From IMG/VR virus record IMGVR_UViG_3300012940_000024, positions 1 through 64,000 of that record: a stretch of 64,000 nucleotides of DNA, one strand, 5' to 3'. Each line of letters opens with the position of its first letter. The first letter of the stretch is position 1. The DNA is from a virus (Duplodnaviria; Caudoviricetes). Below, piece after piece: positions 2,983 through 34,900 of the stretch. Under the pieces are notes generated by a model. That model searched no databases. It was not told where the DNA came from and saw only the letters and a list, made by a program, of their open reading frames with translations. Made by a program: the position numbers and the translations under genes.

Positions 2983-3167
2983 CTAAATATAGCTATATAA
3001 AAGCCAACTTATTAAGTAAGTATGGCTTTTTTTATTACAGTTTAATAAAAATTATTACAGTGCAATAAAAAAGATATAACAAATAGATATTTTATTGTTT
3101 AAAAATTTATAAATATGGAAATTCCTAATAAAGAATTATTATAAAAAAATATAGGAGTGAGAAAAAA

Positions 3168-13487: not shown

Positions 13488-13501
13488 TATTTAGTTATTT
13501 G
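13482..13501 (-). promoter_or_regulatory. Late-gene junction motif copy 1
   Basis: CAAATAACTAAATATTGCTT directly before the endolysin RBS. Confidence 0.65.
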
Positions 13502-14500: not shown

Positions 14501-17500
14501 TTAGCAATTGTAATAACCTCTCCAATATCTATAACCTACATCTGTCCAAGATTCTTGAATGTAGATCCAAAATCCATATTGTGAAATTTCTGCAAATTTG
14601 ATATTTGTATTACTGCTTGTAACACTAAAATTAGGATTCAGTGGTGTATAACCATATTTTTTCATATTAAAATTCACATATGTTCCAGCAACTAGCCCTG
14701 TTGTAAGGGAATTAACTCCACCTATACCACAAACACCTTTTTCTTTTTTGGATGTATACCATCCACTTTCTCCATCATCAGGAGTAGAACCTGCATTATA
14801 ATGTGTGCCTGAATCATATCCTAAATATAATCTTGAACTCATTTCAATACTAACATTAATTTGAGAAGCAATTTTTAATGAATCAGTATTGTTGCTTTTT
14901 TCAATATAATGTGAAGGATATGCTCCTTGAACTTCATCCCAATAATCAAAGAAGTTCAACCTTGCTGTAGTTTTTCCTTCCACGTTATAACGTAATGAAA
15001 GTTCAGCACCTACTTTAACATCTTTTTCAACATCAATAGAAATACCTTCTAATGTACCTGTTTTAATAGCACTTGCATCTAAATTAGTTACATATATTTG
15101 ACTAGCATCAAGTGTACCAGTAGTCATTAAAGAAGCATTTAATTCACCTGTTTTGATATATGTGGCATTGATATATAAATCACCATATTGATCAGCATAG
15201 AAACCGTTAATTTTTGGATTAGTAACTAATTCGTTGAAAGTATTATTTGCATCTGTAGGAGGTTTTTCACCCAAAAGTTCTAAATAAGTTGGTGTCCATG
15301 TACTAGGTCTTGCTCCCACTTCCGAAGCTGTAGGAAACCAGTCATTCGGTCTTGCTCCAACTTCTTCTGCTGTATATGTTGGCTTATCTACATTTTCCCA
15401 TAAGATAGATCCTCCATACATTTGAACATTTCCTCTTATAGTTACGTTGCCTTGTAAATCTACTGAGAAAGTAATAGTTCCATCATCATCAATTACTTCT
15501 AATCCTCTAATATCAATGTTATCTGCGTGAATATTACCAGTTACAACATCAAAATTATCAAAATTAATCTGTCCAGTATGAGCATTAATTAATTCTCTAC
15601 CACTACCATCATTGACAACTAAACGATTGGCAATTAAATCCTCTGCAAATAATGTACCTTCTTCATCTGCATAAAGAATATCTTCATATCGATCCTCAAT
15701 TTTCTTTTGTAGTCTAAATCCTTCCTCATTCAGAACTACACGCTGAGTTTGATAATTGTTTTCAGAAATGATACCATTTAAAGGATCAATAGTTACATTA
15801 CTATAGGATTGTCCTTGACGAATAGCAGTAATTACATCCCCACTAATTTTTGCAGTATTGTTATAGTTTACTGTACCCATGATACTACCATCATAAGGAG
15901 TGTTGTCTTTTGGATTATAAGGTGTTGAAACTGCAACAATTGGTGAAGTAAAGACAGATTCAATATTTACATCAATGTTTACATAGCGATAGGCTTCAAT
16001 ACCAAAATTGTAGAATAAATCTTTCGGTAAATTATTTAGCACTATCGAACGTTTATTCGGTCTTACATAAAAAGATATTTCAGATTTTTTCTTAGTTCCA
16101 AAGACATATGGTGTAGAAGTTTTGGAAGTATAGAGATATATCATAAAACCATCAATTTGATTTTCGGGTTCATCTTCTTCTGGATAATCCCAATTAAAAG
16201 AAATATCTACTAAATCTACCGCAACTTCTGTATGCCGAATATGATTTCCATCTTCAACAATAATTGGACTATTTGGAATCGTGTCATTCTCATTATTTTC
16301 TTCATAGGTGTCAATATAATGTGAAGTCAATCCACTTATATCAGCATCCAAAATAACGTCATCAGACAAATGTTCATTCGTGATACCGCCAATGATTCTT
16401 AATCCTTGACCTTCAATTGTTACACCTTCACTATCCACTCTAAAGTTTCCGGCAGTATTTTCAATGATCAAATTTTCTCCGGCAATAATTTGTCCAATTA
16501 ATCTCTCAGCAATTACACCCTCTGTTGTTATAGCGTTTTTATAGGTTTTACCACCATCATTAGTAATTGCTAATACAGATGAATTTGCTACAAGATAATT
16601 CATAGGATCTACGTCACTCTTGATTAGCAATCCTCTACGAGATATTTCAATAGACTCATTTGTTCCTGCAATAATTTTTTGTTTTGTGGCATCAAAAGCT
16701 TGATTAACAAAGGAATCAAAATCTTCTTTTACCTCAATCGCTTTTGACCATGCATGTTTCTCTAATGATACGGTAGTAGAAGTGCTAACCGCACCATATA
16801 AAGCTTGAATAAATTTTTCTTCATTAGTTTTTATATCATTTACATTAGATATAGTTAATGTAATTGTTTTTTCATTAAAGTTATAATCAATTTGGATTAT
16901 TTTAGCTTCAATTTCAATATCGAATTTATCATATAGAACATATACTAATGTTCCTATATCCAACTTATCCCAATTGTAATGTTCCTCAACTAATTCAAGG
17001 AAATTGACTATATCTATTTCAATGGTGACAGTTGGCTTTTTCATTTCTTTAAATTTTTCTAAAGCACGATTTTTTAAATCTTCCGGATTATTAATTGTTT
17101 CATCAATATATTCTTTAGTTATGACAAATAAATCTCTTTCTTTTCTTAACTCAGGTGTAAAGTTGTTGTAAATAGATAGTTGACTTCTTAGATTTTCTAT
17201 TTCAATATCTATGTTAGCTATTTCATTCTTTTTTGCTTCAACTAAAGCAGTTTGTTCGTCAAAAGCAATTTGATGAATTTCTTCAATAAATTTTTGAATA
17301 AGTGTTTCTTCATTTCCAGTTTCATCAAATTCTGATTTCAATATTCTTGTTACTTGAAGTTCAATATCTGCGTATTCACCACCGACCAATAATACGCTAT
17401 AATCGTAAAGATCAATAGATGATTCTACAGTATCTTCACCTTCACGATCATAATCAATTTTTTCTATTAATTCCCATTCGTTTTCTTTTGTAAATTCTTT

Positions 17501-20500
17501 TACTCCACTATTTGTAGCAATGGAAATAGTCATATCAGATGTTTTTGCGAATAAAGCATAAGTGTAATCTTTTTTGAGTTTATACACTTCATGTCTAGGC
17601 TGTCCAACATAAGGAATCATTGTATAAAATACTGATCCTTCTGCTCTCAAAGCATCAAGTAAATCTTGTACCACAATTAAATTTATTTCGCGTTCGGTTA
17701 ATTCATATTCTAAATCAACTAATTCCTCATTTAATTGTGATCTTGTTAAAATTAATTCTTGATACTCTCCATCATGCTCTTCTAATAATCGGTTATAATT
17801 TAGAATTGCTTTACACAATTCATCAGACATATATGGCGAATGACTTATTACACTCAGCGTTGTAATATTTGATAATGGAGAAATAATGTAACTCAATGTT
17901 TCACTAGTAATAGATGAAAGAAGTTCTTCGATATTTGAAATAAAGCCATAATTTAAATTAGGATTTTCTGATTCAATTTGATAGTTATAAATCGTTTGTT
18001 TTAAATTATCTATATAATCTTCATTTTCTAATGCGTTTTCTAATTCAAATAGCAATCCTGTATTCAATAATGGCTTAGAATTGTCTCCATCAACACCGCC
18101 AATACCTTCAAAACTGTACCGATTATAAAATACGATTTCATTATTGGAAGTAAAATGAGATTCAGACATTAAGGTTAATATGTTATTTCTAAAATCTCTA
18201 GCTGGTTCATTTAATCCAATTGCAGTATAACCCAAAGTGGTTTTTAAAATGTTTTCTGTTTTAAACCAATGATCACCATAGTCATCTAAAATGTTGTCAT
18301 AATTTCTAGGCACTGGTACTAAAGGATAACCGATCCCTTGCTGAATATCTTCTAATGGAAGTAATTCTCCACCAAATTCAGCTAAATAATCTGCATTATG
18401 AATGAATTTATCGTCACTTTTCAATGCAGATGTGTATTTTTGAGTATCAATATAAAATTCTTCTGCAAATTCAGTTTCTAAATCGGTAAATTGTGGAGGG
18501 ATATTATCTGCAAATGCTGGCTCTAATCCCATGTCATATTTACCTTCTGTATCCATTACAAGACCATTAACAACACCATAACCTTGTGCTATCGTTACTT
18601 TTCTTAATCGGTAATTATCTTGCCATGATGGATCAATATAATCTGATCTTCTATTGGCAATTCTTTCTAATTTCATCACTTCTAATTCTTTGATAGTTTT
18701 TCCAGTTTTATTTACGTTTGTCCACCATGTATTAATTTCACCGATTAGATCATAAGTAACTCCATCCACTTTGGGATTCATAGATCCACTCTGAACAGCA
18801 ATATCGAAACACAAAGCATAACCTTGTCTTGACCATAATCCCAATTGATTAAACCATTGTTTTACTATTGTGTGATACCAACTAGCATATTCTTGTTGCA
18901 TGGCAATAGATTCATTTGTAGTACCTAAATTCATGAAATAGGTATTCCAAGGTTCTATCAAGGCATGTTTTCCTTTGCTGGTATCAGATCTTGCATCAGC
19001 CCATTCTAAGATCTCTTGAAAATCTCCCCGAAGCATCATAGCTTTCCAATTGTTGTGATTCGCTACATTAGATTCATATGTTCTATTTGGATTATCTGTA
19101 AAGGCTTTTAATGTTACATCAGGATAAAAATTAATCATGTTTTGCCATTGCTCGATTAATGAGGATGTTTTTGCGTTAAATTGGATTACCCCAAAACTAA
19201 TTCCAGCACCATCATGATTACCCGAAGTTGTACCAAAATTGTATGGATATTCTCTTGATGTTTCATACTGTGAAGTGAGCATTAACGCTTGCCATTTTAA
19301 TTCTGATTCAGTTAAAAGATGATAGCTATATGTTTCCGAAGGTGAAGAAATTTTTGGAACAACAAGCACTTGTCCAATATAAATCATATCAATATTAATT
19401 TGTGGGTTTAATTCCGAAATTTTAGCAATAGTCGTGTTATGAGCAGTTGCAATTGCTCCTACGGTATCACCACTTTTAACCGTATATAATTCTGTTGGTT
19501 CACTTGTTGGATGGCTAGGAACTTTAATTTTTTGACCAATTGTTAAAGCAACACTAGGATCTAATGTTGGATTAGCATTGTCTAAAAATGTGATAGTTGT
19601 TGTAAAAGTTACAGCAACAGATGAAATGGTATCTCCACTTTTTACTGTGTATACTTCTAAAGGTACTGGTATCAATATCTGTAATCCCACATATAAATTT
19701 TCTGGACTAACAGATGGGTTAACAGCCTGTATTCTTGCAGATGTTGTACCAAATTGTGTAGCTAGTTTTGAAAAAGTATCACCTGAGACAATAGTATAAG
19801 TCATGTTATATTCGATTAATGGTACAGTAATTACAAGACCTTCATAGACATTCAAAGGATTGATTGTAGGATTTAACTCTTGTATATGAGTTGATGTTGT
19901 ATCGAATTTAATAGCAATAGATGAAAAAGTTTCTCCACTTTTTACTGTGTAATTTCTTGTTAATTCAGTAGGTTCTTCCACTCTAGGTACATAAATTTGT
20001 TGACCACCATAAATGTTATATTCTTCAATCATTGGATTCAAAGCTAATAAAGTGGCAGATGTTGTATTAAATTTAATAGCAATTGATGATAACGTTTCAC
20101 CTTCAATTACTGTATATACATCTGTATTTTCCGGCTGTGGTACTTGATAAATAAAATTATGTGTTACTACTGATGATTCGAGTGTTCCATCACTAGCCTT
20201 CAATCTTAAATACACCATTGTATTAATTGTGTTAAAATCTAAAGAATCTAATCGAACTGTTGCCAAACTACCGGAATTTACAAATTCTGATTCTTTTTGC
20301 TCTACAAAACCTGAGAAGTTAGAAGATAAGCTTGCTTCAACAATTAATTTGACGGTACTTGAATCAGGATCATATACTTTTGCAGAAATTAATAAATCAT
20401 TGGCATATGTTCCTAAAGTTGGAGTGATTTCATCAGGTTCATAAGGTGCTTGTGCTTCAATAGTTGGTACATAAATTTGTTGACCGACATATAGATTTTC

Positions 20501-23500
20501 GGCTTCAACAAATGGATTTAAAGATAATAAATTTAATGAGGTTGTACCAAACCTATATGCAATATCTCCTAATGTATCTCCGGCTACAATCGTATAAATA
20601 GATGTATTTGGAGGTTGTGGATATTGATATACAAAACTAACATTTACAGGTGACGAAACTAAAGATCCATCACTGGCTGTTACTTTCATATAAATGGTAG
20701 TTTTTACCGTATTAATATCATGTCCACTTAAAGTAATACTTGCTGTTGTTTCATCATCTACCATATCAGACTCTTGAATGATACTATTAGTGAACATAGA
20801 AGAAAGGCTTGATTCAACGATTAATTTAACCTTTCTAGAATCGGGATCACTAACTGTTGCACTTACTTCAAAATTGTTAACAGTTGTTCCCTGTAAAGGA
20901 AGAATATTTGTTGGTGCGTTTGGTGGTTTTGGAATAGGAACATATATTTGTTGTCCTATATAAATGTTTGAAGGATCTAATATATCTACATTCAAAGCTT
21001 GCAATGCTTCAATAGTCATTTTTCTATCATAAGCAATTTTCCCAAATGTATCTCCACTTTGAACAATATAAATGACTGTATTTTCCGGCTGTGGATCAAC
21101 GACACTTGTAATATTGATTGTTACTGTTGCAATTTCTGAATCATCTTCACCATCATTCGCTTTATATTTAAATGTATCTGTACCATAATAGTTTGGGTTA
21201 GGAATATAAACGAATGATCCATCTTCATTAAGTGTTAATGTTCCATGCTGAGTAGTTTCCACTAAAATAGCTGTTAATGGAGAATTTTCAATATCAGTGT
21301 CATTTTTTAATACACCATTTGCAGAATCAACATTCAACGTTGTATCTTCATTTGTTGTATAGGTGTCATTTGAAGAAAACGGTGCATCATTTACACTGTT
21401 GATAGTAATAGTTACGGTTGCTACATTTGAATCTAAATAGCCATCACTAATTTTATATGTGAATGAATCTTCTCCAAAATAGTTTTCTGTTGGTGTATAG
21501 GTAAATGTACCATCACTATTGAATAAAAGTTCTCCATGTTGAGTAGTAGTTAATAATATAGCTGTCAATTCTGTACTATCTACATCATAATCATTCTTGA
21601 TAACACCATTCGTTTCATCTGTAGTTAATACAGTATCTTCATTTATAATATAGATATTATCTACTGCAACAGGGGGATCGTTGATTGGATTAACAGTGAT
21701 AGTAACTGTGCCAATATTAGAATCTAATCTGCCATCATTTACTTTATAGGTAAAAGTATCAACACCAAAAAAATCATGATCTGGTGTATAAGTAAATGAT
21801 CCATCTTCATTTAAAGTTAGTTCTCCATTTGCAGGGTTTGTTACAACGATTGCTGTTAAATCTTCACTGTCAACATCATGGTCATTTGCTATTAATCCGG
21901 TTATTACATCAATGGTTAAAGTATTATCTTCATCCACGCTATATTCATCATCTTCTACAAAAGGAGGGGAGTAATAATGATAATACTGATAAGGTAATCC
22001 AGTTGGTGACATAACAATTCTGCCACTTAAATATTCTTGATTATAAAAATTCAATGTTACATCTAAAATATTAGTAGGGTTATAAATGTTACCCATTAAA
22101 TCTGTTCGATCAATGTCCGAAAAAACAGATATAAATTTCTGCCATGCTTTAGCAAAATACCATAATGTAGCATTATTAAATAAATTCCATGATAAGTAAT
22201 ATTGATTTGCTCCATCTTGGGCAGTACCAATTTTTACAATATGATCATAAATTAGTCCTTCATAACCTTCTTCAATGTTGTTATCTTCAATTCTTTGTTT
22301 AACATTGTTATGAGCAAAGGCTAAGAAACTCATTATGCTTGTTACAAGATCTGTATATCGTGTTTGACTGTCATGTTCGCTATATTCTAATAAAGCATAG
22401 GCTACGAGATATAATGTTTGTAAATTGATTTTATCAATTTGAGGTTTCCAAATATCTTCTTCACGATCATATGTTAATGTATGAGGAAGAACATAGAATT
22501 TTTGTCCGGAATAATCCGCATGGATTTTATTTGTTTCAAGAAAATTCGCAAACATACCACAATCATCAATATAATCTGTATTTTGAGTTGTTTTATATAA
22601 CAGCAAATAATTTATGATTGCTCTTGAAACAGATTCAATACTTATTTCATCAGATACTTTACCTGTTAATTGATCGATAGATGTAAATATTCCACCTTGC
22701 GGAACAGAGATAAATCCCATTGTTTCAGTATAATAAATATCCGTTGGATCTTTCACTATCGCTTTGCTGTTTTGATAAAAATCGGAAAACTCTTCACTTT
22801 CCATTTTGAAGCCTTGCATAAAATAAGAAAAATCTTCCAAATAATCCGCACCGTTAATTGTAGCTTTTTCAATGGTTAAATTATTTTCTCCAATTGGTTT
22901 TAAATGTGTAACCATTTCTTCAATATTTGATGTTTTAGAAAGACTTTTTAAATATTTACCATATTTAATTTTTAATCCTTTATTTACATCATCAATCATA
23001 GGATTTTCAAAATCGACAATTCGATTCACTGTATCCCATTTTAATATAGCGTTAAAAGATGTTGCTACTTGAATTATAAAATCTAAAACAGTCATGTTAG
23101 ATACATCAAATATCCTTCTTTCTTTGTTCCAATAGAAATCAGGATTTTTAATGTTTGCTCCAATTCGCCAATTCAATTGTCCATCTAAAGCAAAAAGTAA
23201 TGCACTATGAGCCGACCAAATTTCTTCTCTATAATTGGATATTAATTTATCTTTTAATTCATAGGCCAATGACCATGCATGTATATATTTGGAATTATTT
23301 TCACCATAATTGGATATTTCATTAATTATGAAATATTCTGTTTTATCTCTATATACAAGCTTAATCAAAAATCTTTCTTTGATCATTTTGAAATGATCAT
23401 TTTCCACTAATTCATTTCTTGTCGATTCTATTTCAAAAGGAATAGAAAATGTTAATTCATTAAGATCAGCGTATCTTTCAGTGAATGTTACATTATAAGC

Positions 23501-26500
23501 TTCACTTAAATGTGCAATTACTTGTTTGTTTGGCTTGCATAAATAAATTTTAGGTTTTGATACAGGCATATTTTTGTCAACTTTGCCTAAAGTTGTTGAT
23601 AATGGTTCAAGAATTTTAGCATAGACAGTTACACGATAACTTTCTGAAAATCCACTACGATCCCCTTGATAATCAAATGCTTCAACTTGAAATGTATGTG
23701 TTACATTTGATTCTAGATGATCAATCATATATTTATTTTCGGTTATATTTGATGCAATTAACCAGCCATCTTTATAGACATTGTAATGACTGTGACCGTA
23801 CTTTTTCTCATGTTCCCAATTTAATTCAATTCCTCCTGTTCCTAGTTCTTTATGATAAGTAATTTTTGGAACATTCGGAAAATCAAAAACAGGAGTTGAG
23901 AATATTGAATCACTAATTTGAGAAGTGAATCCTTTATTTGAAATTGCTTGTATTTTAAAATCATACATTACATCATTTAATAATCCGGCTACCATCAATT
24001 CATTTTGAGGATGATTGACTACCGCATATATTTCACCATCAAGATATATGTTATAAGATTCAACAAAAGATTCTTCATTCAGTTGCCATGTTAATAAAAC
24101 TTCACGATCATATGGAACAGCACTTAAACCAGTCGGAACGCTTGGAATATCAATTCTTTGAGTAATCGTTCCACTAGTGACTGAATCATTTTCATTATCA
24201 TATGTGATAATTTCTAGTGTATAATCATAATTTGGTTTTGCTTCAACATATTTAATAGTATTTTCTGTTACATCACTTGACGTTAATATAATCTTTCCGT
24301 TTAAATAAACTTCAAAATGTGAGAAATTTGGACTTTCTTCTAATTGCCATCTAAATAAAATTGTTTTATGATCTAAAATTTCAGCCTGTAAGTCTGTAGC
24401 TTTATTAGGATAATCAGTTATAGGAGTAACAGAAATTGTTGCTGAATCCGGTGAAACTAATCCTTGTGTTGAAACAGCTTTAATATGGAAATCATATGTC
24501 ACACCATTTTCTAATCCACTTACGAGATAAGAATTTTGTTCTGATTCTAATACAGCTACTAAATGATCTCCTTGATATAACAAGAAATTATCAATTTCAA
24601 CAGGTGGTTCGAGTTCAACTTCTTTTTCAACAAATACTTCACCTATTGGAATTGGTTGTGTTGCTACAATATATGGTACAGATACCTCATATTCAATTTC
24701 TTCCTCAACGATTCTTTCTACGGTAATGGTTTCATAAGTAGTTAATGGTTGAGCAAAAATTCCTTCATTCTCGGGAAAAGCAGGATCTAAAGTTAAACCA
24801 TAATCTTCTGTATTTACTGCAATTCCATGTACTACACCACTACCTGTAGCAATCGCTAACTTTCTTCTTCTTACATCTTCAATATAAGTGGGATTTGAAG
24901 CATTTGCTCTACGATTAGCAATTGCTACCATTTTTTGAGTTTCAATTATACCATGAGGTAAGGATGTATCAATGGTAGTAAAATCATTAAAAATTAATGC
25001 TTTAGTAGAAGAAGAGATTGACCAGTTTTGAATAGCAATATCGAAACATAATGCAAACGCTCTACGAGTAGTTAAGCCGAAAGTATTAAAGTGAACTTTT
25101 GCTTGATTAAAGAAGGTTTCTGCATGTTGCACTTGTACAGCAATACACTCCGGAGTTACACCTAGATTACGAAAATATGTTCTGTATGGTTCAACAATAT
25201 TTTTTCCTCCCGAAGTAGAAATGCTTGCACCCCAACTTACTTGCTGTGATCTAGTCATGTTATAAACAACATTTTTCAACGTATTGTAATAAGAAGGATT
25301 GGCATTATAATTAAAAGCATTTTTGACTACATTAGGATAATTATCAAACATGGCTCTTAATACAGGTTGCAAAGTACCGGATTTAAAGTTATATTGAAGT
25401 GCCCCAAAACTCATACCAGCCTGATCTGAATTTCCTGCTGTTGCTCCATATGCATCAGGATAACCAGCAGATGTTTCAAATAGTCCAGTTAAAGCCAAGC
25501 ATTTTGCTTTCAATTCCTCATACGTAGTAATTTGAGGTGTAACTAGTGTAGTTGTGGGCACTTGCTTTGTTTCTTGAATGACTTTTTGTACTTTTCTAGT
25601 TCTTGTTTCTGTTCTAAATTCAATGGTTGTTGGCACTACAGGTTGAGTAGGGTTTCTTACGATTAACTTTGATCCAATGATTAAATTGTCAGGATCTACA
25701 TCAGGATTAAACGCTTGCAATTCATAACTAGGCATATTGTATAATTCTTCAATATAGGCAAAGGTATCATGTTGTTGAACAATATGATATTTTGTTCCTT
25801 GTGGTAAATCGACAAATAAATATAAAATTTCACCAGCTACTAAAGGTTCATCCATTAAATGATAATTCCAAGCGACCACTAAACTGAATTGTGTTCCATG
25901 CATTTCTGCAATAGAATCAATTGTATCTTCCGGCTGGACAACATAAAATATTGATCCTTCCGGTTGTTCATCAGGTGTTCGTGGAACATCAGGCAATGGT
26001 GGAAGATGAAAAAAGTCAGGTTTATCCCATGATATTAATGCTTTTCTATCAAATGGTGTAGCTTTTAATCCTTTTACTTGTGGAGGTTTATGCAAGGTTC
26101 TATGCGTTACATTAGATGATTCAATATCACCTTGCTTGTCAACTGCTACAACATAAATATCATGAGGAATATCTACTCTAGCGTTTTTAATAACAAATCT
26201 TTCTTCTTGTAAATAATCAGCAAGAATAACTCTATCCATCACAATATAGAAATAATCAAAATCTTCATCTTTATGATATGACCATGTTACTTCAATATCC
26301 CCATTTTCATACACTTTAGTGCGTAACATAGAAGGGGGCATAGGTCTTTTAAGAATTGGTGCTATTTGTAACGGATCAGATAAAGGACTAGGATCAGTAT
26401 GTTCATTGTGTGCTTGAACTTGTAAACTGTAAATTCTTCCATTTTCTAATCCACGAAAGGTATAAGTAGTTTCTTCTGTATAACCTACTTTTTGACCATC

Positions 26501-27628
26501 AAGGTAAACAGAATAACCCTTTACTTTTTCACCCTCAGAATTTTTTTCCCAAGATAATCTAATTTCTCGGTCAAATGCTTCACCAAACAATCCCGAAGGT
26601 TTACTAGATCTTCCGGTACGAGTGAAAACAGTATTACTTGATTGAGATCTAGAAAATTGACCATTTTTTGAAACTACAGCTATTTGATAACTATAACTTT
26701 TTCCATCTTCAACCGTTGTATCATTCCAATAATTTGTAGTAGGAGGTAATTGTCCTAATCGGATTCCATTCCTCCAAACATCCAATCTTTCAATTCCAGC
26801 AATAGGAGCAATAACCCAACGAACTTCAATTGTATTTGCAGTTGTCAAGCTTGCAACAGGTTTTGTAGTAGCCATTGCTTCTTGCATATCTACAGTATAA
26901 AAGGAAGAAATATGATCCAACGATTCAACATAGTTCATATCTAATCCAGTAGAAGATACTCCAACAGATTGTCCATTTTGGAAAGGCTGTGCATCACTTG
27001 TATATTGCCACATTGCCCAATCTGTCCATCCACCAATATCAGGGATAGAAGTTGTTCTCCATTTTGCGATCCATAATGGCATATCAATTAATATATTTCC
27101 ACCAGTAGCATAATTAAAATTATTATGTTGTTGAATAAATGCCCAATTTGTATAAAGTCCTAGTTTTACATTATTATTAAATTTAGCTTCAAATGTTCTT
27201 CTAAATTCGTCTACCCATTTAAGCATTTGAGTAGTATTTAATTGACTATGCCTACCACCAACATTTTGATTATCTTCCAAATCAATGAAAGGTAGTAAAT
27301 CGCCCCATTTTCCAACACCAAAAACTTCTTCCAATTTATTAGCGTATCTATTCGCTTGTTCTCTTGCTGAATCTAAATCATATTCATTGGAGATTGTACA
27401 GAAAAAATATGATCCGCATGGAATACCAACACTTTTAAATCCTTGTGCATATTCAACTATTCTTGAATCGGGTGAATTAGCTGATCCATATGCTCTTAGA
27501 ATAGCGAATTTAATTCCGTTGGCTCTTACTTTTGCATAATCAATATTTCCTTGATAGGCACTAACATCAATTCCACGCAGATAACCTCCACCTGTTCGCC
27601 AATCTCGGATCTTCAAATTCTTCACCAT
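14501..27628 (-). CDS. Giant (4375 aa) tail tip/central fibre protein: GH25 muramidase, ~7 FN3, 9 LysM, 2 lysozyme-like hydrolases, prophage tail-endopeptidase-like core, helical toroid-like domain, 3 cadherin-like repeats
   Basis: RGIDVS...PFIDLE...LDMN (GH25); FN3 W/Y patterns; Y.V..GDT..IA LysM repeats; KPKIYLCKPNK...LNELTFSIP and ITNDGGKTYKNAIT core motifs of SPbeta YomG-like proteins; position after Dit and TMP. Confidence 0.85.
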   Translation of the reverse strand: MVKNLKIRDWRTGGGYLRGIDVSAYQGNIDYAKVRANGIKFAILRAYGSANSPDSRIVEYAQGFKSVGIPCGSYFFCTISNEYDLDSAREQANRYANKLEEVFGVGKWGDLLPFIDLEDNQNVGGRHSQLNTTQMLKWVDEFRRTFEAKFNNNVKLGLYTNWAFIQQHNNFNYATGGNILIDMPLWIAKWRTTSIPDIGGWTDWAMWQYTSDAQPFQNGQSVGVSSTGLDMNYVESLDHISSFYTVDMQEAMATTKPVASLTTANTIEVRWVIAPIAGIERLDVWRNGIRLGQLPPTTNYWNDTTVEDGKSYSYQIAVVSKNGQFSRSQSSNTVFTRTGRSSKPSGLFGEAFDREIRLSWEKNSEGEKVKGYSVYLDGQKVGYTEETTYTFRGLENGRIYSLQVQAHNEHTDPSPLSDPLQIAPILKRPMPPSMLRTKVYENGDIEVTWSYHKDEDFDYFYIVMDRVILADYLQEERFVIKNARVDIPHDIYVVAVDKQGDIESSNVTHRTLHKPPQVKGLKATPFDRKALISWDKPDFFHLPPLPDVPRTPDEQPEGSIFYVVQPEDTIDSIAEMHGTQFSLVVAWNYHLMDEPLVAGEILYLFVDLPQGTKYHIVQQHDTFAYIEELYNMPSYELQAFNPDVDPDNLIIGSKLIVRNPTQPVVPTTIEFRTETRTRKVQKVIQETKQVPTTTLVTPQITTYEELKAKCLALTGLFETSAGYPDAYGATAGNSDQAGMSFGALQYNFKSGTLQPVLRAMFDNYPNVVKNAFNYNANPSYYNTLKNVVYNMTRSQQVSWGASISTSGGKNIVEPYRTYFRNLGVTPECIAVQVQHAETFFNQAKVHFNTFGLTTRRAFALCFDIAIQNWSISSSTKALIFNDFTTIDTSLPHGIIETQKMVAIANRRANASNPTYIEDVRRRKLAIATGSGVVHGIAVNTEDYGLTLDPAFPENEGIFAQPLTTYETITVERIVEEEIEYEVSVPYIVATQPIPIGEVFVEKEVELEPPVEIDNFLLYQGDHLVAVLESEQNSYLVSGLENGVTYDFHIKAVSTQGLVSPDSATISVTPITDYPNKATDLQAEILDHKTILFRWQLEESPNFSHFEVYLNGKIILTSSDVTENTIKYVEAKPNYDYTLEIITYDNENDSVTSGTITQRIDIPSVPTGLSAVPYDREVLLTWQLNEESFVESYNIYLDGEIYAVVNHPQNELMVAGLLNDVMYDFKIQAISNKGFTSQISDSIFSTPVFDFPNVPKITYHKELGTGGIELNWEHEKKYGHSHYNVYKDGWLIASNITENKYMIDHLESNVTHTFQVEAFDYQGDRSGFSESYRVTVYAKILEPLSTTLGKVDKNMPVSKPKIYLCKPNKQVIAHLSEAYNVTFTERYADLNELTFSIPFEIESTRNELVENDHFKMIKERFLIKLVYRDKTEYFIINEISNYGENNSKYIHAWSLAYELKDKLISNYREEIWSAHSALLFALDGQLNWRIGANIKNPDFYWNKERRIFDVSNMTVLDFIIQVATSFNAILKWDTVNRIVDFENPMIDDVNKGLKIKYGKYLKSLSKTSNIEEMVTHLKPIGENNLTIEKATINGADYLEDFSYFMQGFKMESEEFSDFYQNSKAIVKDPTDIYYTETMGFISVPQGGIFTSIDQLTGKVSDEISIESVSRAIINYLLLYKTTQNTDYIDDCGMFANFLETNKIHADYSGQKFYVLPHTLTYDREEDIWKPQIDKINLQTLYLVAYALLEYSEHDSQTRYTDLVTSIMSFLAFAHNNVKQRIEDNNIEEGYEGLIYDHIVKIGTAQDGANQYYLSWNLFNNATLWYFAKAWQKFISVFSDIDRTDLMGNIYNPTNILDVTLNFYNQEYLSGRIVMSPTGLPYQYYHYYSPPFVEDDEYSVDEDNTLTIDVITGLIANDHDVDSEDLTAIVVTNPANGELTLNEDGSFTYTPDHDFFGVDTFTYKVNDGRLDSNIGTVTITVNPINDPPVAVDNIYIINEDTVLTTDETNGVIKNDYDVDSTELTAILLTTTQHGELLFNSDGTFTYTPTENYFGEDSFTYKISDGYLDSNVATVTITINSVNDAPFSSNDTYTTNEDTTLNVDSANGVLKNDTDIENSPLTAILVETTQHGTLTLNEDGSFVYIPNPNYYGTDTFKYKANDGEDDSEIATVTINITSVVDPQPENTVIYIVQSGDTFGKIAYDRKMTIEALQALNVDILDPSNIYIGQQIYVPIPKPPNAPTNILPLQGTTVNNFEVSATVSDPDSRKVKLIVESSLSSMFTNSIIQESDMVDDETTASITLSGHDINTVKTTIYMKVTASDGSLVSSPVNVSFVYQYPQPPNTSIYTIVAGDTLGDIAYRFGTTSLNLLSLNPFVEAENLYVGQQIYVPTIEAQAPYEPDEITPTLGTYANDLLISAKVYDPDSSTVKLIVEASLSSNFSGFVEQKESEFVNSGSLATVRLDSLDFNTINTMVYLRLKASDGTLESSVVTHNFIYQVPQPENTDVYTVIEGETLSSIAIKFNTTSATLLALNPMIEEYNIYGGQQIYVPRVEEPTELTRNYTVKSGETFSSIAIKFDTTSTHIQELNPTINPLNVYEGLVITVPLIEYNMTYTIVSGDTFSKLATQFGTTSARIQAVNPSVSPENLYVGLQILIPVPLEVYTVKSGDTISSVAVTFTTTITFLDNANPTLDPSVALTIGQKIKVPSHPTSEPTELYTVKSGDTVGAIATAHNTTIAKISELNPQINIDMIYIGQVLVVPKISSPSETYSYHLLTESELKWQALMLTSQYETSREYPYNFGTTSGNHDGAGISFGVIQFNAKTSSLIEQWQNMINFYPDVTLKAFTDNPNRTYESNVANHNNWKAMMLRGDFQEILEWADARSDTSKGKHALIEPWNTYFMNLGTTNESIAMQQEYASWYHTIVKQWFNQLGLWSRQGYALCFDIAVQSGSMNPKVDGVTYDLIGEINTWWTNVNKTGKTIKELEVMKLERIANRRSDYIDPSWQDNYRLRKVTIAQGYGVVNGLVMDTEGKYDMGLEPAFADNIPPQFTDLETEFAEEFYIDTQKYTSALKSDDKFIHNADYLAEFGGELLPLEDIQQGIGYPLVPVPRNYDNILDDYGDHWFKTENILKTTLGYTAIGLNEPARDFRNNILTLMSESHFTSNNEIVFYNRYSFEGIGGVDGDNSKPLLNTGLLFELENALENEDYIDNLKQTIYNYQIESENPNLNYGFISNIEELLSSITSETLSYIISPLSNITTLSVISHSPYMSDELCKAILNYNRLLEEHDGEYQELILTRSQLNEELVDLEYELTEREINLIVVQDLLDALRAEGSVFYTMIPYVGQPRHEVYKLKKDYTYALFAKTSDMTISIATNSGVKEFTKENEWELIEKIDYDREGEDTVESSIDLYDYSVLLVGGEYADIELQVTRILKSEFDETGNEETLIQKFIEEIHQIAFDEQTALVEAKKNEIANIDIEIENLRSQLSIYNNFTPELRKERDLFVITKEYIDETINNPEDLKNRALEKFKEMKKPTVTIEIDIVNFLELVEEHYNWDKLDIGTLVYVLYDKFDIEIEAKIIQIDYNFNEKTITLTISNVNDIKTNEEKFIQALYGAVSTSTTVSLEKHAWSKAIEVKEDFDSFVNQAFDATKQKIIAGTNESIEISRRGLLIKSDVDPMNYLVANSSVLAITNDGGKTYKNAITTEGVIAERLIGQIIAGENLIIENTAGNFRVDSEGVTIEGQGLRIIGGITNEHLSDDVILDADISGLTSHYIDTYEENNENDTIPNSPIIVEDGNHIRHTEVAVDLVDISFNWDYPEEDEPENQIDGFMIYLYTSKTSTPYVFGTKKKSEISFYVRPNKRSIVLNNLPKDLFYNFGIEAYRYVNIDVNIESVFTSPIVAVSTPYNPKDNTPYDGSIMGTVNYNNTAKISGDVITAIRQGQSYSNVTIDPLNGIISENNYQTQRVVLNEEGFRLQKKIEDRYEDILYADEEGTLFAEDLIANRLVVNDGSGRELINAHTGQINFDNFDVVTGNIHADNIDIRGLEVIDDDGTITFSVDLQGNVTIRGNVQMYGGSILWENVDKPTYTAEEVGARPNDWFPTASEVGARPSTWTPTYLELLGEKPPTDANNTFNELVTNPKINGFYADQYGDLYINATYIKTGELNASLMTTGTLDASQIYVTNLDASAIKTGTLEGISIDVEKDVKVGAELSLRYNVEGKTTARLNFFDYWDEVQGAYPSHYIEKSNNTDSLKIASQINVSIEMSSRLYLGYDSGTHYNAGSTPDDGESGWYTSKKEKGVCGIGGVNSLTTGLVAGTYVNFNMKKYGYTPLNPNFSVTSSNTNIKFAEISQYGFWIYIQESWTDVGYRYWRGYYNC

Positions 27629-28144: not shown

Positions 28145-28921
28145 TTACAGTCCTAATAAATATTTATATCTATATCTAAATTGAATAGTGCATTTTCCGT
28201 ATATTTTTAGTTGGTTTTCTCCCATTGGTAATTTCATGTAATCTGTTAATACATCTTCAAAATGATATAGGTTTGGCACATTAGATTTAATATCTTCTTT
28301 TTCATGATTTAAATATAAATGCTCTCCATCTTTAAGGTTTACTACTCGAAATTCTCTATTTTCATCAGAAAGATTAATGATTGTAATTTCTCCATCCTCA
28401 ACTTTTTTTATCCACATTTCAATTTCTAAAGGAACATCACCATCATTATTGATTGGAATGATTGTTCCCTCCACTGGATTGTCTGATAAGTCATAATCTT
28501 CTGACAAATATTCCTGTGAATAAGCAAAAGCATCATTAGTTCTCATTGTTAATTCTAAATATCCTTGATTTAATCCATTATGAGTTAAAAAATTGTCTGA
28601 AATAGGCATAACAAAAAAACGATATTGAGGAAGATCGATAAAGTAAAATTCTTTATAATAGTCCACATTTAACCATCTATTCAATCTTCTTAAATAATCA
28701 TAATCATATTGCTGAGTAAGAGCAAAAGCCAATGTAAATTCCATTGGCTTTAACCCTACTTCTTGAAAATATGGTTTTGTTCTTCCTCTAATGATTTCCT
28801 CTAATAATTCTCTAGTTCCAAACAATCTTTCTTTGTATAACCCACCTTCTAAATTAATGTTAATTAAACCCATATCGGAAGAAAGTTCATTATTATAAAA
28901 AAAATCTAAACTTTCTCTCAT
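28145..28921 (-). CDS. Distal tail protein (Dit, YomH-like)
   Basis: Immediately after TMP; SSDMGLIN...PMEFTLAF...INNDGD...LPMGENQLKIYG siphophage Dit pattern. Confidence 0.8.
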   Translation of the reverse strand: MRESLDFFYNNELSSDMGLININLEGGLYKERLFGTRELLEEIIRGRTKPYFQEVGLKPMEFTLAFALTQQYDYDYLRRLNRWLNVDYYKEFYFIDLPQYRFFVMPISDNFLTHNGLNQGYLELTMRTNDAFAYSQEYLSEDYDLSDNPVEGTIIPINNDGDVPLEIEMWIKKVEDGEITIINLSDENREFRVVNLKDGEHLYLNHEKEDIKSNVPNLYHFEDVLTDYMKLPMGENQLKIYGKCTIQFRYRYKYLLGL

Positions 28922-31900
28922 TAAATTTTCACTCCTTTTCTCTCTAGCCCTTTGATAATTTCATTGACAAAATTTTCAGCTTCTTTTGCTTGTCCTTCCA
29001 TTTTTTCAATATTAAAATTGATATTAATTTGTTGATTTGTATTCGTATTATTGTAAGTGTTAGCTGGAATATTATTTGGATTAAAACCAATTAAAGGATT
29101 GGCTATAGGCATATTGTTAATTGTTTCTCCTGTAATTCTTCCGGCAATCGAACTATAATCACGATTAAATGCTATATCTTGGTCAGTAAGTGAAGTAGCT
29201 ATACCATATAATCCTGTTTGTAATTGTTCAAATTTATCAATAATGTTTTGGGAAATAGCTTCTCCTATTAATTCAGAATTAAGTGCCACATTTTCTTGGA
29301 ATTGATCAATGGTTGCCATCATTGTTGCAGTATTTCCAGCTAATAAATCTTCTCTGATTTTTGCGAATGTTCTTTCATTTTCAATTAGATTTTCCCATTT
29401 TCTTTCAACCTGTTTAGAATGTTCTTCAAGAGAATCCATCATTTTATCATAGCGTTCTTCTTCTGATTCAGTAATTTGTTTTGTTTCTTCTTGCCTAGCT
29501 TTTAATTCATCTTCTAATGTTTTTTTTCTTTCCTCTAATTGTTTTTGTCTTTGAGTTTCAGCAATTTCTTCTGTAATATCTTGTAATTCTTTTTCAATTT
29601 GTCGTTTTCTTTGTTGACCTTGTTGAGAAGTATCTAATGAAAGTAATCCAATTTGTTCGATTAATTCCTGTCTTGTTCTTTGCTTTTCAGCTAGTTCTTT
29701 TTCATATTGTCTTTTATCTTCTAATTCATCTAGTTTATCTAATTGTTCATCAATATTTTTTTCAAAAGCTTCTAAATCTTTTTCATACATTTCTATACGT
29801 TTATCATATGCATCTTCCAATGCATCCATTTGTTTTTCAATGGCTTCTAATTCAAGATCTTCCATTTCTTCATAATAATCTTTCATTGCATCTATAAGTT
29901 CATCTATTGCTTCTTCATGTCTCTCTAATTGTTCTCTTTGGGAATCTTCTATTGCTTCATTAAGTTCTTTTTGCTTTTCAGTCAATTCTGCAATTGAATC
30001 TTTCCATGCTTCGTATAATTCCGGAAAATTTCTAACTGCATTTTCTTCTGCTTTTAATTGTTTTAAATAAACTTCATTGGCACGAATTTGTTTTTCATAT
30101 TCTCTTCTAATTTGCTGTTGAGCGATAGTGAATTTTTGTAAATCATTATCAGAAAAATCATTCATTTTTCGTTCTATATCAGCGATTCTTCTATCAGATT
30201 CTTCCATGCCTGTTTCATAAAGATTTAAAATTTGATCTACTCTTGATTGAGCAATTGACTTTTGTAATTCATATATTTCTTTTTGTTGTTCAATATATTT
30301 TTTTTGTTGCTCGTCAATCATATCGTAAATTTCATCAGTTAATTTTTCGTTTAAAGCTAATTCAGCGTTGGTTAATTCTTGATTTAAATAAGCTATACTT
30401 TGAGCATTGGCATCTGCTTGTGATTGAAGTAGCTTTAATCTTGCTTCTCGGTTATATCTAAATTCTTTGGATTGCTGATCTAGTTTTGAAGCGAGAAATT
30501 CATTTTCAACCAAATCAACTTCCATCTTTTTTGATTCACGTTCTAATCGTGCAACTTCACTAGATATTAGTTCCTGTAATGTTTTAAAATAATTTTCACG
30601 AACTGAGACTCTTTCTTGTAATAATTGTGCCCTTTCATCTTTTGCTTGATCAATGGCTTGCTGTCCTTTAGCATCTAAAGTATTAGCAATATTAATTCCT
30701 AATTTTGACCATGTTTGTCTACCGACAATACCATCTACAGCAATACCAACTTTTTTCTGAAATTCTCTTACAGCACGTTCTGTTTCTTTGCCAAAAATAC
30801 CATCAGCAGAAATACCCAAAGCTTTTTGTAATTCTTTTACTTCATTTCCTCTACTACCTACTCTTAAAGTTTTTGCAGTAACTCCTGTTCCTAAAATCTC
30901 CGATCCTTTTTCTACTAATCCTGTTTGTTGGATTCTTCCACTAGCAATTTGAGCATCTAAGCTGGCAGTTTCTTTATCAATAGCTTTTATTTTTTCATTT
31001 ATAAGTCTTGCTTCTTCTTTTAATCCTTTTTGATATTCTTTAGAATATTCTGGGTAATCTAACATCAAATTTTGATTTTTGGCAATTTCTTCATTTAATC
31101 TTCTCATGGTTTCTTTATATTCATCAGTTATCCAAACCATTTCTTTTGTTTCTTTTTGACTTTTATTTCCACCAGCATCTTTTTTTAATGGTGCTTCGGT
31201 TTTTTGAATATTGGCAGATAAATCTATATTTTTTAGTGCTTGAATGTTTGCTAATTCTCTTTCCAGTTCTTGTTTTGCTGACTTCGCTTGTCCTCTTGCG
31301 ATAACTGTATAACTTTTTACACGTTGAGCAATATAAGTACCCCAATCTAAAGATTTGACACTCTTTTCACTGATACCCTGTGCTATTAAATTTTGTTGAT
31401 AGGCAAGTGCATCCGCCGCCGCCATTTGGTGTCCAATGATTTCAGCACTTGTTTTTGAAGCATTAATATAAGCTGAATCAAGAAATTGTAATGTTTTCAC
31501 TTGAACTTCTGCACCTTTAAGAAATGCATTTACTGTTTCAAGTTGTGCTTTTATTTTGGCTTCTTCTGCTGACAATTTAACTTTTGCACTTTCTTCTTCT
31601 TTATCTGCTACTCTTTGTAATGCTTCTTCTTCAATGGTTAATACATTATTACGTGTACTAATAGCATCCGATAATTCCGGATACATAGATGTTAATTGTG
31701 AAACTTGACTTATTGTTAAGCTTTCACCAGCATTTACCGTTTGAATTGCTTGTGCAAGAATAATTGCATTTTTTTCATATTCAGCCATAATATTATTACG
31801 TTCCATAGCAACCATGTTCGCTAAAGATTGTTCTTGTGTTTGAGTTGCTGTTTTAGCCCCTACATCAGCAAGTAAGGTACTTTGATTCGCTAAAAAATAA

Positions 31901-34900
31901 TTAAATAATTGTGCTATATCTTTATTTAAACCTGTTTGATTAGCCAAGCTTTGTAAAGCTGATGTAGCAAGATTAGATCCATTTACAAGATCATCAAATT
32001 TTATTCCTTCACCTGCTATTGAAGATAATGCTTCTTTTACATTGTCTTTATAATTTTCTAAAAAACTTACATCTATCTGTTTTTTTGAAATGGCTTCAAA
32101 TAATGCTTCATTTAATATTTCAGCAAATTGACCAGCACTACTTTCAACATCTATATTTCTTTCACTTAAAGCATCACTAAATTGTTGTTCAAAATCAATA
32201 CCTAGTTCTTCAATTCTAGTTTGAATTTCTTCATCAAATGATTCAATAGTCCTACCTAAATCATCTCTGCCTTTATTTATATTTGCGACTAAACGATCTA
32301 CTGCTTCATTAATTCCTTCCCGTTCCGGAGTCCAAACATCTAATGCAGTTGTAGCTTGTGTATATAAATTTTCTGATATTTGACCACGATCATACATTGA
32401 TTTGATTGATTTTTTTACATTGTCTATTTCAGCTTTTAATGCTGAATTTTTTTCTTTAAATTTAGCTATATCAGTATCCTTAATAATGTCTCTAATTATA
32501 TTTACACCTTGAACATCTTTTTCTATAGCCTTCAAACGCTCTTTCGCTTTTTCAGCTTCGTTAACAACACCTTGTAATTTTTGAGCCGGAGTTCCAATAT
32601 TAAAGCCTTCTAATATTTCTTCACCATAATCAGACTGACCAATCCAACTAAAAGCTTTTCCTATTCCTGCTTTTCCAAAAGCTTTGTCAGTTTGCTCTTG
32701 TGCAATTTTTTCGGAAGTTAATCTCAATTCTTCCCTTTTTTGTTCATTTAACTCTTTTAAAGTTTCTGCTGATTTTAAATGAGCATTTCCTTGTTCATCG
32801 TAATAAGCTACAAATTCATTTCCAAAACTTAACAATTCTTTTTGTAATTCTGTATATTCTTCTAATTCTTTACTTCCTTGTGTTAAATATCCAGCTTGAT
32901 CTAAATTTTCTAATTGTGAATATCTTTCAATATCAAATTCGTCTAATTGATTTAATACTTTAGACTGTGCATCATATTCTTCTTTTAATTTTTCAATACG
33001 CTCATCACTAGTTTCAATTAATTCATCTAATGCATAGACAACACCATTTATAGCTGTTCCAACAAGAAAACCAACTACACTCATTTTTAACATTGTTCCA
33101 ATGGCTAGTCCTGCGGATTTAGCCATACTTCCTACTCTTTTTAAACCAGTTCCCATTGATACAACTTGTGCATTAAATCTTCCTGCTTCGGTAGTATTAG
33201 ATCTAAAGGCATTAAATAAATCTTTTTTAAAAATTCCGGCAATAGGTAATAAAAGACCAGCAAGAGTTCCTACTGATCCAAAAGTATCTATAAACTTTGT
33301 TAGTGCTTGAACAGCAGATGTTATCGCACTAATAAAGCCTTTCATTGTATCATTATCCCAAAAAGTGAGCCAAAATTCTTCAAGTGAAGCCTTTAATTCA
33401 TCAACTCTATATACTAAAGATTCTTGATATTTTGAAAATTCTCGATCCATACTACCCATACTTGTTTCTGCGGTTTTAAGGGCATTTTGGGCATCTTCCC
33501 AATTTCCTAACATAGCACTAACTACTGTACCTTGATGTTTACCACCAATAGCTTCAACTAATCCTGCTCGTTGAATATCAGTTAGGCTATCCCAAACTCC
33601 TGCTAATTCTTCAAAAATTTGATAGGTAGATTTAAATGTAGTTGCATCTTTCATTAATTCTAAGCCAATATCATTAAACGCTTTTTTTAGTTCCGGTACT
33701 GCTCCTGTAAGTTTACCTGTTTCTTCATCTACACCTCTTAATCTCATTGAAATGGTTTTCATTGCAGTACCAACACGTTTTTCATCTTGAATTACTTTGT
33801 TGGCAGAAGCGATCATAGCTACTGATTGTTCTACATTATTTCCGGCTTCGGCTAAAACTGCTGATGATCTTTTTAATGCTTCACCAATTCCACTAGAAGT
33901 TACAGCAAAATTGTTTCCAACTTCGTTGAAAATATCAGCATATCTTCTTGATTCTTCTACTGCATTTTTTTCATCAACACCAAAACCAGCTAATGCAGAT
34001 GTTAAGAAATTTGAAGCATCTTCAACATTCATATCACCAACATTGGCATATTTTAAAGCAGTTTCACCTAATGCTCTTGATTCTTGGAATGTGTAGCCTA
34101 ATTTTTGCATCTCTGTTACTGCTCGAATAACTTCGGCTGTTGTAACACCTAATTCTTGCCCCATTTGAGAAGCTTCGATCCTAAAATTTTCAACTGCTTC
34201 TGTAGTCGCATCTGTTACTTTTGCTAAATCTGTTAATGCTTCATCAATTTCATAAATACTTCTAAATCCTTCACTAGCTAATTCTAATATTTCATAGGTC
34301 ATTCCGAACGTTGCTAGATAAGTGGGCACTCTTCGCATTGAAGCTGACATTTGTTCCCAAATAGTTTGTTGTTGGACTAATCGAGTTTGTTGAACACCCA
34401 TGTCATACATTGATCTTGTAGCCTGATCCAATGCAACTGCATAACGAGTAATTTCACCTCTAGCATCTCTATGATCATATGTTAGACGGGTAGTTGTTCC
34501 ATGTACTGAATCATAAGTATGATTCAATCTAATTAATTCATCATTAACATTCTCAATTCCACGCTGTTGTTCAAGATAAGCCTTTGCCAATGCTCTCATT
34601 TCATCTTCACGTTCTAAATGAGATCGAGAAGAGTCAAATACTCTATCTATTCTTTCCGGTTCTAAGGGAACATCTCTTATGCTTTCAACTCTATCCCCAC
34701 GTATCCTAACATCTTCTTTTCTTCTTTGTGCTTCAATATCATTATTAATTTTTCTTTGCTGTGCTTCACGTTTCAATTCATTAATTAAGGCTTGAACGTT
34801 TTGAATTTCCTTTCGACTTTCTTCATTTCCTTGTCTTTTTAATTGATTTATTTTTGTCTGTAAATTTTCTAATTCTTTGGTGAAATGATTCAAATCATCA

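Follow-up and report, generated by a model that had tools for sequence, protein, structure and literature searches.

A 4375-residue YomG-type tail-tip protein with large insertions nested inside its structural domains

We analyzed a 64,000-nucleotide stretch of phage DNA (the window; positions 1 to 64,000 of IMG/VR virus record IMGVR_UViG_3300012940_000024) with a GC content of about 30%. The record that holds the window is 83.8 kb long and about 52% complete as estimated by CheckV. An earlier sequence-only reading of the window, made by a model from the letters and the list of open reading frames (ORFs), had proposed a single frame of 4375 amino acids (aa) in which binding and enzyme modules are nested inside split domains. 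The ORF at 14501-27628 on the minus strand was confirmed to be one uninterrupted frame of 4375 codons. Its product is labeled P0001 and all other P-numbers are proteins of relatives. The features of P0001 are given below from the N-terminus to the C-terminus, with residue numbers and the evidence used, including profile hidden Markov models (HMMs) and AlphaFold2 (AF2) models with their predicted local distance difference test scores (pLDDT).

14501..27628, minus strand: whole ORF, 4375 aa (P0001), giant Tal / YomG-type tail-tip protein (ORF list, Pfam, PHROGs)
26879..27628, minus strand: GH25 muramidase domain, aa 1-250 (D21, D116-L-E118; PF01183, 94.9 bits)
26087..26866, minus strand: FN3 repeats 1-3, aa 255-514 (own-repeat HMM)
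26009..26086, minus strand: N piece of FN3 repeat 4, aa 515-540, strands A-B, end motif ...ISWDKPDFF (HMM, structure)
24614..26008, minus strand: insert A, aa 541-1005, in the BC loop of FN3 repeat 4 (relatives, Pfam, AF2)
24764..25534, minus strand: GH46-like (chitosanase-fold) hydrolase 1 within insert A, aa 699-955 (E718, D735, D863; AF2 pLDDT >90)
24410..24613, minus strand: C piece of FN3 repeat 4, aa 1006-1073, strands C-G (HMM positions 22-88)
23612..24409, minus strand: FN3 repeats 5-7, aa 1074-1339 (own-repeat HMM)
22808..23611, minus strand: N part of the Tal core, aa 1340-1607 (YOMG_N at 1363-1444; Prophage_tail positions 12-157; TIGR01665 positions 12-217)
17846..22807, minus strand: insert B, aa 1608-3261, a 1654-aa insertion into a Tal core loop (8-9 residues here in P0007 and P0006)
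21971..22798, minus strand: N part of an (alpha/alpha)6 barrel, aa 1611-1886 (family profile positions 9-275)
18317..21970, minus strand: insert C, aa 1887-3104, 1218 aa, at barrel profile position 275
21095..21967, minus strand: three cadherin-like / Big_9 repeats, aa 1888-2178 (Pfam; 50-56% mutual identity)
19355..21070, minus strand: seven LysM, aa 2187-2758 (starts 2187, 2345, 2505, 2560, 2611, 2660, 2715)
18494..19321, minus strand: GH46-like hydrolase 2, aa 2770-3045 (E2789, D2806; 36-43% identical to copy 1)
17882..18316, minus strand: C part of the (alpha/alpha)6 barrel, aa 3105-3249 (profile positions 275-423)
16301..17845, minus strand: C part of the Tal core, aa 3262-3776 (helical hairpin and small beta domain at 3262-3503; Prophage_tail positions 155-239 at 3509-3596)
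15944..16300, minus strand: DUF7359, aa 3777-3895 (Pfam)
14504..15943, minus strand: C-terminal fibre-like region, aa 3896-4375

The N-terminal arm consists of the GH25 domain followed by seven FN3 repeats, which were identified by fragment self-comparison. The Pfam GH25 family matched residues 20-213 well above its cut-off (27 bits) and the catalytic D116-x-E118 motif was present together with D21, in agreement with the intact DxE motif proposed earlier. The ortholog P0007 matched SleM (5jip) in a PDB sequence search with an E value of 7.6e-31. The sequence-only reading had described FN3 repeat 4 (FN3-4) as split around some 470 aa holding two LysM and a hydrolase, and this was supported by an HMM, by relatives and by AF2. 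The insert measured 465 aa and carries two LysM (about 562-605 and 616-657), a predicted beta-ribbon stalk and GH46-like hydrolase 1. An HMM built from the six intact FN3 repeats of P0001 matched the C piece (1006-1072) from position 22 onward and the 26-aa N piece at positions 3-22. When the two pieces were joined in silico the HMM gave a full-length match of 47-50 bits, as compared to 40.0 +/- 2.6 bits when the C piece was preceded by random 26-mers instead. An AF2 model was obtained for residues 505-1085 (mean pLDDT 79.6), and solved single FN3 domains from the PDB superposed on model residues 14 to 566 with 77-90 residues aligned at about 2 Å. This superposition spans both ends of the model, indicating that the two pieces of FN3-4 form one domain. 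The insert exits after strand B and re-enters before strand C, which places it in the BC loop. Inside insert A, two strands of 30 residues each were predicted (667-696 and 960-989), which presumably pair as a beta-ribbon stalk bearing hydrolase 1. Among relatives, the orthologous FN3-4 was intact in P0003, P0005 and P0007; P0006 carried a shorter cassette of a different size (one LysM plus the hydrolase) in the same loop, and P0004, P0107 and P0111 had the same arrangement as P0001.

The Tal core was identified by YOMG_N (PF24049), which scored 88.5-91.2 bits against a cut-off of 27 and places P0001 within the Tal profile family. PHROGs matched two stretches of P0001 to the 'minor tail protein' family phrog_6211. 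Two further profiles were each divided over the two halves of the core: PF06605 (Prophage_tail) gave 40.3 and 37.9 bits (cut-off 31.3), with positions 12-157 at residues 1465-1613 and positions 155-239 at 3509-3596, and TIGR01665 broke between positions 217 and 223, its two parts scoring 26.4 and 31.0 bits (cut-off 26.75). The motif that ends the first half stops at F1607 (nt 22808) and the second half begins with SHSPYMSD at S3262 (nt 17845). In P0007 and P0006, the nearest relatives free of an insert at this point (site B), 8-9 residues separate the ...GF motif from SHSPYMSD, as compared to 1654 in P0001. The same was seen in shorter phage proteins: residues 5-258 and 246-640 of Tsamsa gp223 (887 aa) aligned to P0001 1350-1610 and 3243-3743, and residues 223-509 and 512-1008 of KKP_3916 gp37 aligned to 1347-1612 and 3260-3765. 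As both proteins are collinear across site B, the core halves are contiguous in shorter phage proteins. The proposed split of the tail core by about 1650 aa therefore held, and alignment of homologs, suggested earlier as a way to map the insertion points, placed the split halves side by side in relatives without each insert, so that all three insertions could be located to the residue. A PDB sequence search with the Tal core found no match to any solved Tal. The statement that SPbeta YomG-type proteins are far shorter is in line with the length of Tsamsa gp223 and of the 31 relatives in the 470-2000 aa class, which span 617-1935 aa.

The last ~180 aa of P0001 had no counterpart in relatives and are presumed to be a receptor-binding tip; an atlas search with this unique C-terminus gave a weak lead only ('tail fiber protein family', score 0.91). 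The small beta domain within the Tal core contains two more insertion hot-spots (P0001 aa ~3366-3421, window ~17365-17530), at which P0006 (aa 1663-1832) and P0003 (aa 2550-2717) each carry an extra module of ~170 aa. Neither Pfam nor NCBIfam had a match for these modules. By eye the P0006 module resembles a segment within the C-terminal part of P0003, P0005 and P0006, suggesting that modules move between sites.

Insert B begins and ends with the two parts of an (alpha/alpha)6 barrel. The sequence-only reading had recognized here a helical domain interrupted from ~21965 to ~18470; the split was confirmed with a barrel profile built from 18 uninterrupted members, and the resumption had to be moved to residue 3105 (nt 18316), about 50 residues after 18470. 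An exhaustive search with residues 1613-1890 returned 37 representative relatives, and in about 30 of the 37 a segment homologous to 3105-3249 follows directly (for example P0074, 539-803 then 808-939, and the stand-alone protein P0081, 445 aa). The profile matched P0072 and P0074 in one piece and was split exactly at position 275 in P0001, P0003, P0107 and P0111. P0072 is a YomG-type Tal with an uninterrupted barrel at the same core site B. The AF2 model of P0081, a stand-alone relative and not a split copy, was an (alpha/alpha)6 barrel (pLDDT 91.6, predicted TM-score 0.92) with 163 PDB matches at E<=0.001, among which AGE epimerases, GH76, GH47, GH8 and GH88 enzymes matched at TM 0.5-0.66. 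As modeled, the barrel is a fourth carbohydrate-active-type module beside the GH25 domain and the two hydrolases; no Pfam or NCBIfam family matched it and the family has no characterized member. The site of insert C is a beta-hairpin loop between two barrel helices.

The contents of insert C were counted correctly in the sequence-only reading as three cadherin-like repeats, seven LysM, two 'Ig-like' units and a second hydrolase. The 'Ig-like' units are a real repeat pair of ~105-aa beta-rich units (2232-2340 and 2392-2496), each behind one of the first two LysM of the insert, but neither matched a Pfam or NCBIfam family. Together with the LysM at 562 and 616 of insert A, the seven of insert C make up the nine that had been proposed (PF01476, 289 bits over nine stretches).

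Members of the barrel family (P0072-P0106, 37 representative clusters) occur both within phage tail proteins and on their own, as proteins of ~440 aa. Their partner domains include Prophage_tail, a tail-collar fibre N-terminal domain and Laminin_G_3, and the family invariants include the motifs N-w-D-w, D-R-Y and D-D-x-S. P0072 itself is a partial tail spike from a 3.8-kb contig in a metagenome-assembled genome labeled Nitrosarchaeum sp. at NCBI; it is 60% identical to the Firmicute-type Tal core of P0001 and the contig is thus probably a mis-binned phage contig.

The two hydrolases are a paralogous pair (699-954 and 2770-3042, 36-43% identical by fragment self-comparison). The top 11 structural matches of the hydrolase 1 model were all GH46 (Z 11.0-13.6, root-mean-square deviation 3.8-5.2 Å, ~200 of 240 residues), and Foldseek E values reached down to 1.9e-4, with Vibrio cholerae VgrG3 (4noo) among the matches. 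The domain matched no NCBIfam family and had no PDB sequence match, and the GH46 match is evidence of a common fold but not of a common substrate. In the 22 full copies of the hydrolase, both inserted and stand-alone ones, 15 of 15 invariant positions were kept; these include E718/E2789, D735/D2806 (17 residues after the Glu) and D863. In the chitosanase of Streptomyces N174 the Glu/Asp pair is Glu22/Asp40. Stand-alone homologs are 270-293 aa long and others are fused to PG_binding_1 or LysM in an endolysin-like architecture, partners that point to peptidoglycan rather than chitosan. In a tree of the domain the site-A and site-C copies formed separate lineages, with the site-C clade grouping with stand-alone proteins (98/99 support; root uncertain), which argues for separate acquisitions and not for internal duplication. 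Of the three wall-degrading enzymes proposed earlier, one was therefore recovered as a GH25 domain and two as GH46-fold domains with an intact Glu...Asp pair, while their activity is something we infer.

Relatives carry the inserts in different combinations. P0007 (2521 aa) has the GH25 and FN3 arm and none of inserts A, B and C, P0006 has insert A only, with one LysM, P0003 and P0005 combine inserts B and C without insert A, and P0004, P0107 and P0111 have all three. With P0072 as an uninterrupted barrel at site B, all intermediates exist. This combinatorial presence and absence, together with the two hydrolase lineages, fits the build-up by repeated in-frame insertion that the sequence-only reading had favored. 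The largest versions were P0107 (5083 aa) and P0111 (5187 aa); the latter has three GH46-like copies (696-944, 2373-2640 and 3187-3455) and was found on at least 5 contigs of ~126-141 kb. Giant versions were restricted to the clade with the GH25-FN3 arm. P0004, P0108 and P0109 share a single contig and appear to be pieces of one broken 5083-aa gene.

Three genes around the giant ORF define its setting.

28921..36069, minus strand: tape measure protein (TMP), 2382 aa, with embedded PG_binding_1
28145..28921, minus strand: distal tail protein Dit, 258 aa
12336..13487, minus strand: separate endolysin, Amidase_2 plus two LysM and PG_binding_1

On the same strand the gene order is TMP, Dit, an 89-aa ORF and the giant ORF, followed downstream by a 137-aa ORF, a Peptidase_C92-like ORF and the conventional endolysin. 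The giant ORF comes directly after the TMP and Dit genes, which is where siphovirus tail modules have their Tal gene; the order in Tsamsa matches (TMP, Dit, then the Tal gene). As the phage has its own Amidase_2 endolysin, the enzymes of the giant protein are candidate virion-associated entry enzymes and not lysis enzymes. Some further observations concern the neighboring genes. PG_binding_1 lies at aa 1740-1790 of the TMP, PHROG endolysin families match the same stretch, and the TMP may also touch the wall. The 171-aa ORF at 13491-14006 (minus strand) is labeled 'enoyl-CoA hydratase-like' by PHROGs, as is Tsamsa gp224, and is a Peptidase_C92 permuted papain-like amidase by Pfam; it could be an additional accessory of the tail module that acts on wall or lipid. 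A scan of genome contigs returned one locus, a prophage of the Paenibacillaceae isolate Chengkuizengella marina (L004, 9179-12421) in which a 1080-aa Tal, 42% identical to the core, is followed by a 2082-aa ORF; the host of the phage is not thereby identified. A search of viral contigs for related loci with the Tal core returned no relative, and a literature search for 'YomG' returned nothing relevant.

Together these data suggest that the phage is a large, low-GC, SPbeta/Tsamsa-like siphovirus and that the ORF encodes its Tal (YomG / Prophage_tail family), serving as a virion-borne device for binding and digesting the cell wall; we put the probability of this explanation as a whole at roughly 0.75. 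The scheme starts from the observed insert positions, domain content, natural intermediates and conserved guest active sites. The ground state would have been an ordinary core of ~900 aa with an N-terminal GH25 domain and an arm of seven FN3 repeats, as in P0007. A LysM-LysM-stalk-hydrolase cassette (insert A) would have been grafted into the BC loop of FN3-4, the (alpha/alpha)6 barrel (insert B) into a loop of the Prophage_tail domain, and a cadherin-LysM-hydrolase cassette (insert C) into a loop of the barrel. With the two ends of every guest brought together, the host domains would still be able to fold. Homology would place the Tal core in the tip complex below Dit, with the arm and inserts displayed around the tip, and if Tal is trimeric, as it is in other siphophages, each virion would carry 27 LysM, 9 cadherin-like repeats and 9 catalytic domains of the muramidase type. 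Multivalent, high-avidity binding of a thick Gram-positive wall may come from the LysM and cadherin-like repeats, and local glycan cleavage from the GH25 and two GH46-fold domains, after which the tube and tape measure could reach the membrane. The C-terminal 480 aa, the end of which is unique to this phage, would provide receptor specificity.

Several observations weigh against this explanation. The N piece of FN3-4 had low pLDDT in the AF2 model (40-69), and the 1340-aa N-terminal extension ahead of the Tal core is atypical, with its route out of the baseplate unexplained. With 15.8 bits (E 0.011) the Pfam GH46 family (PF01374) stayed below its cut-off of 27 and covered the N-terminal 66 residues only, leaving the hydrolases outside the family by sequence, and the GH46-like domain family has no characterized member. 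The interrupted barrels were changed at family invariants, with D299E and W303K in 4 of 4, R131Q in 3 of 4 and also D351N in P0001, all four positions being kept in six uninterrupted members; the interrupted barrel may thus have become a scaffold. This loss of several invariants from the barrel of the giants would suit a display platform for adhesion only, in which the hydrolase-like and barrel modules are not enzymes and bind carbohydrate in a lectin-like manner, like the carbohydrate-binding modules (CBMs) of 'evolved' Dit and Tal. Also in its favor, LysM (nine copies) and the cadherin-like repeats (three) are modules for binding, and two inserts of hydrolase-like fold, in loops of the gp27-like domain of the Tal of Streptococcus thermophilus pac-group B phages, were left open by their authors as hydrolase or CBM (PMC7533335). 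We consider such a platform unlikely, as the GH46-like copies keep all invariants including the Glu/Asp pair at 30-45% overall identity, the GH25 D-x-E is intact, and the stand-alone hydrolase homologs are endolysin-like in architecture.

A cleaved precursor, from which either a mature tip with part of the modules or released soluble lysins would result, is made plausible by the sheer size of the protein and its atypical N-terminal arm, and some lactococcal Tals (TP901-1 / Tuc2009) are proteolytically processed. However, Pfam and PHROGs scans of the ORF revealed no cleavage motif or protease domain, cuts within the nested inserts would split host domains, and no internal start was conserved, M1353 having been rejected because it is not conserved in relatives. 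We therefore rate processing as less probable still than the adhesion platform. An assembly artefact or chimeric ORF is very improbable. The contig is metagenome-derived and repeated LysM, FN3 and hydrolase modules could mislead an assembler, but proteins with 45-82% identity show the same nesting in independent assemblies from ENA, JGI, NCBI and Logan. Furthermore, the Logan assembly of the probable source run, made with a second assembler, has one 61.6-kb contig covering 14000-28200 and gives this 14.2-kb stretch with 0 differences. With protein identities of only 36-56%, the internal repeats are too diverged to have collapsed. GC content at third codon positions was 0.13-0.21 in hosts and inserts alike, giving no sign of a recent foreign origin for the inserts. 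Three runs of other studies (X2, X3 and X5) held only scattered short identical contigs, and the one junction crossed by the listed pieces was the left one of insert A (X5, 25876-26173); the stretches without coverage are uninformative. Two minor observations concern the same stretch. A contig from X3, an invertebrate-gut run, joins ~20 nt at 24603 via TTTTA to ~20 nt at 19650, that is the start of the FN3-4 C piece to the LysM region; this may stem from a relative of the phage whose modules are arranged differently, or from chance, and the matches are too short to interpret. GC skew was -0.003 to -0.06 over 18001-22000 and 24001-26000 as compared to -0.10 to -0.21 in flanking parts of the ORF, probably due to amino-acid composition.

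Beyond the wall-binding and wall-digesting Tal, we tentatively propose a broader view that, taken jointly, falls somewhat short of even odds. The clade may be a natural 'plug-in' system in which a few loops take up portable cassettes of very large size, which pass from site to site and from phage to phage. The accepting loops would be the FN3 BC loop, Prophage_tail position ~156, barrel position 275 and the two further core sites seen in relatives. The guests would exceed their hosts, with a long beta-ribbon stalk joining the guest ends, and the (alpha/alpha)6 barrel, once interrupted, would decay to pure scaffold. In this view the GH46-like domain would represent a new family of peptidoglycan hydrolases that are carried on the virion and might be adapted to N-deacetylated walls.

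The relatives offer a clean natural experiment, as an empty site, a single insert and a nested insert occur within one family and across three host folds. Two of the module families, the GH46-fold lysin domain and the tail-borne (alpha/alpha)6 barrel, lie outside Pfam and NCBIfam. For engineering, the insertion sites point to loops of virion proteins that would tolerate the display of large folded enzymes.

In comparison to known systems, P0001 is most directly related to the Tal of SPbeta (YomG) and Tsamsa (gp223), annotated as 'minor tail protein' or 'tail endopeptidase', and is alike in gene position, in its collinear core and in the combination of YOMG_N with Prophage_tail. It differs from the 887-aa gp223 by the added arm of GH25 and seven FN3 repeats and by three nested inserts of ~2100 aa in total. 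The C-terminal domain of Vibrio cholerae VgrG3 (4noo), which degrades peptidoglycan, is likewise a chitosanase/GH46-like fold on the spike or tip protein of a contractile or tail-like machine. Unlike the P0001 hydrolases it is a terminal fusion and not an insertion; the two have no detectable sequence similarity, and it is a weaker match than true GH46 chitosanases. The latter (4olt, 1chk) share with hydrolase 1 the whole-domain fold and a Glu and Asp 17 residues apart, at 10-17% sequence identity.

The closest precedent for the architecture is found in siphophages of lactic acid bacteria, in which 'evolved' or decorated Tal and Dit carry extra modules in loops of structural baseplate domains and display them at the tail tip (PMC7533335, PMC7291167), examples being the Tal of S. 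thermophilus pac-group B phages (PMC7533335) and the Dit of Lactobacillus phage J-1 (PMC7291167). CBM inserts have been documented in Dit and in loops of the gp27-like domain of Tal; the Tal case, described as 'to-date unique', comes from the pac-group B phages, in which the decorated domain reaches ~800 residues (PMC7533335). In P0001, too, extra domains interrupt a conserved core and are absent from classical relatives, which is what defines an 'evolved/decorated' Tal (PMC7533335). The inserts of evolved Tal and Dit are single and CBM-sized, ~200-250 aa, whereas the core of P0001 holds a 1654-aa insert that is itself cut by 1218 aa, with guests of catalytic type, and an FN3 repeat of the arm also serves as host. 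This would extend the concept of an 'evolved Tal' beyond single binding modules, to whole enzyme-plus-anchor cassettes in the numbers per virion given above for a trimer. Nested insertions are known elsewhere, with up to six levels in Si3 of the cyanobacterial RNA polymerase beta' subunit, and P0001 shares the hierarchical A1-B1-C-B2-A2 pattern of those surveyed (PMC13114784). In that survey inserts were consistently smaller than their hosts (PMC13114784). P0001 contradicts this size rule, as every guest outsizes its host, up to five-fold, with 465 aa in a 94-aa FN3 repeat and 1218 aa in a barrel of ~420 aa. P0001 is thus an extreme form of the known 'evolved/decorated Tal' principle, with two levels of nesting, oversized guests of catalytic type and a full series of intermediates.

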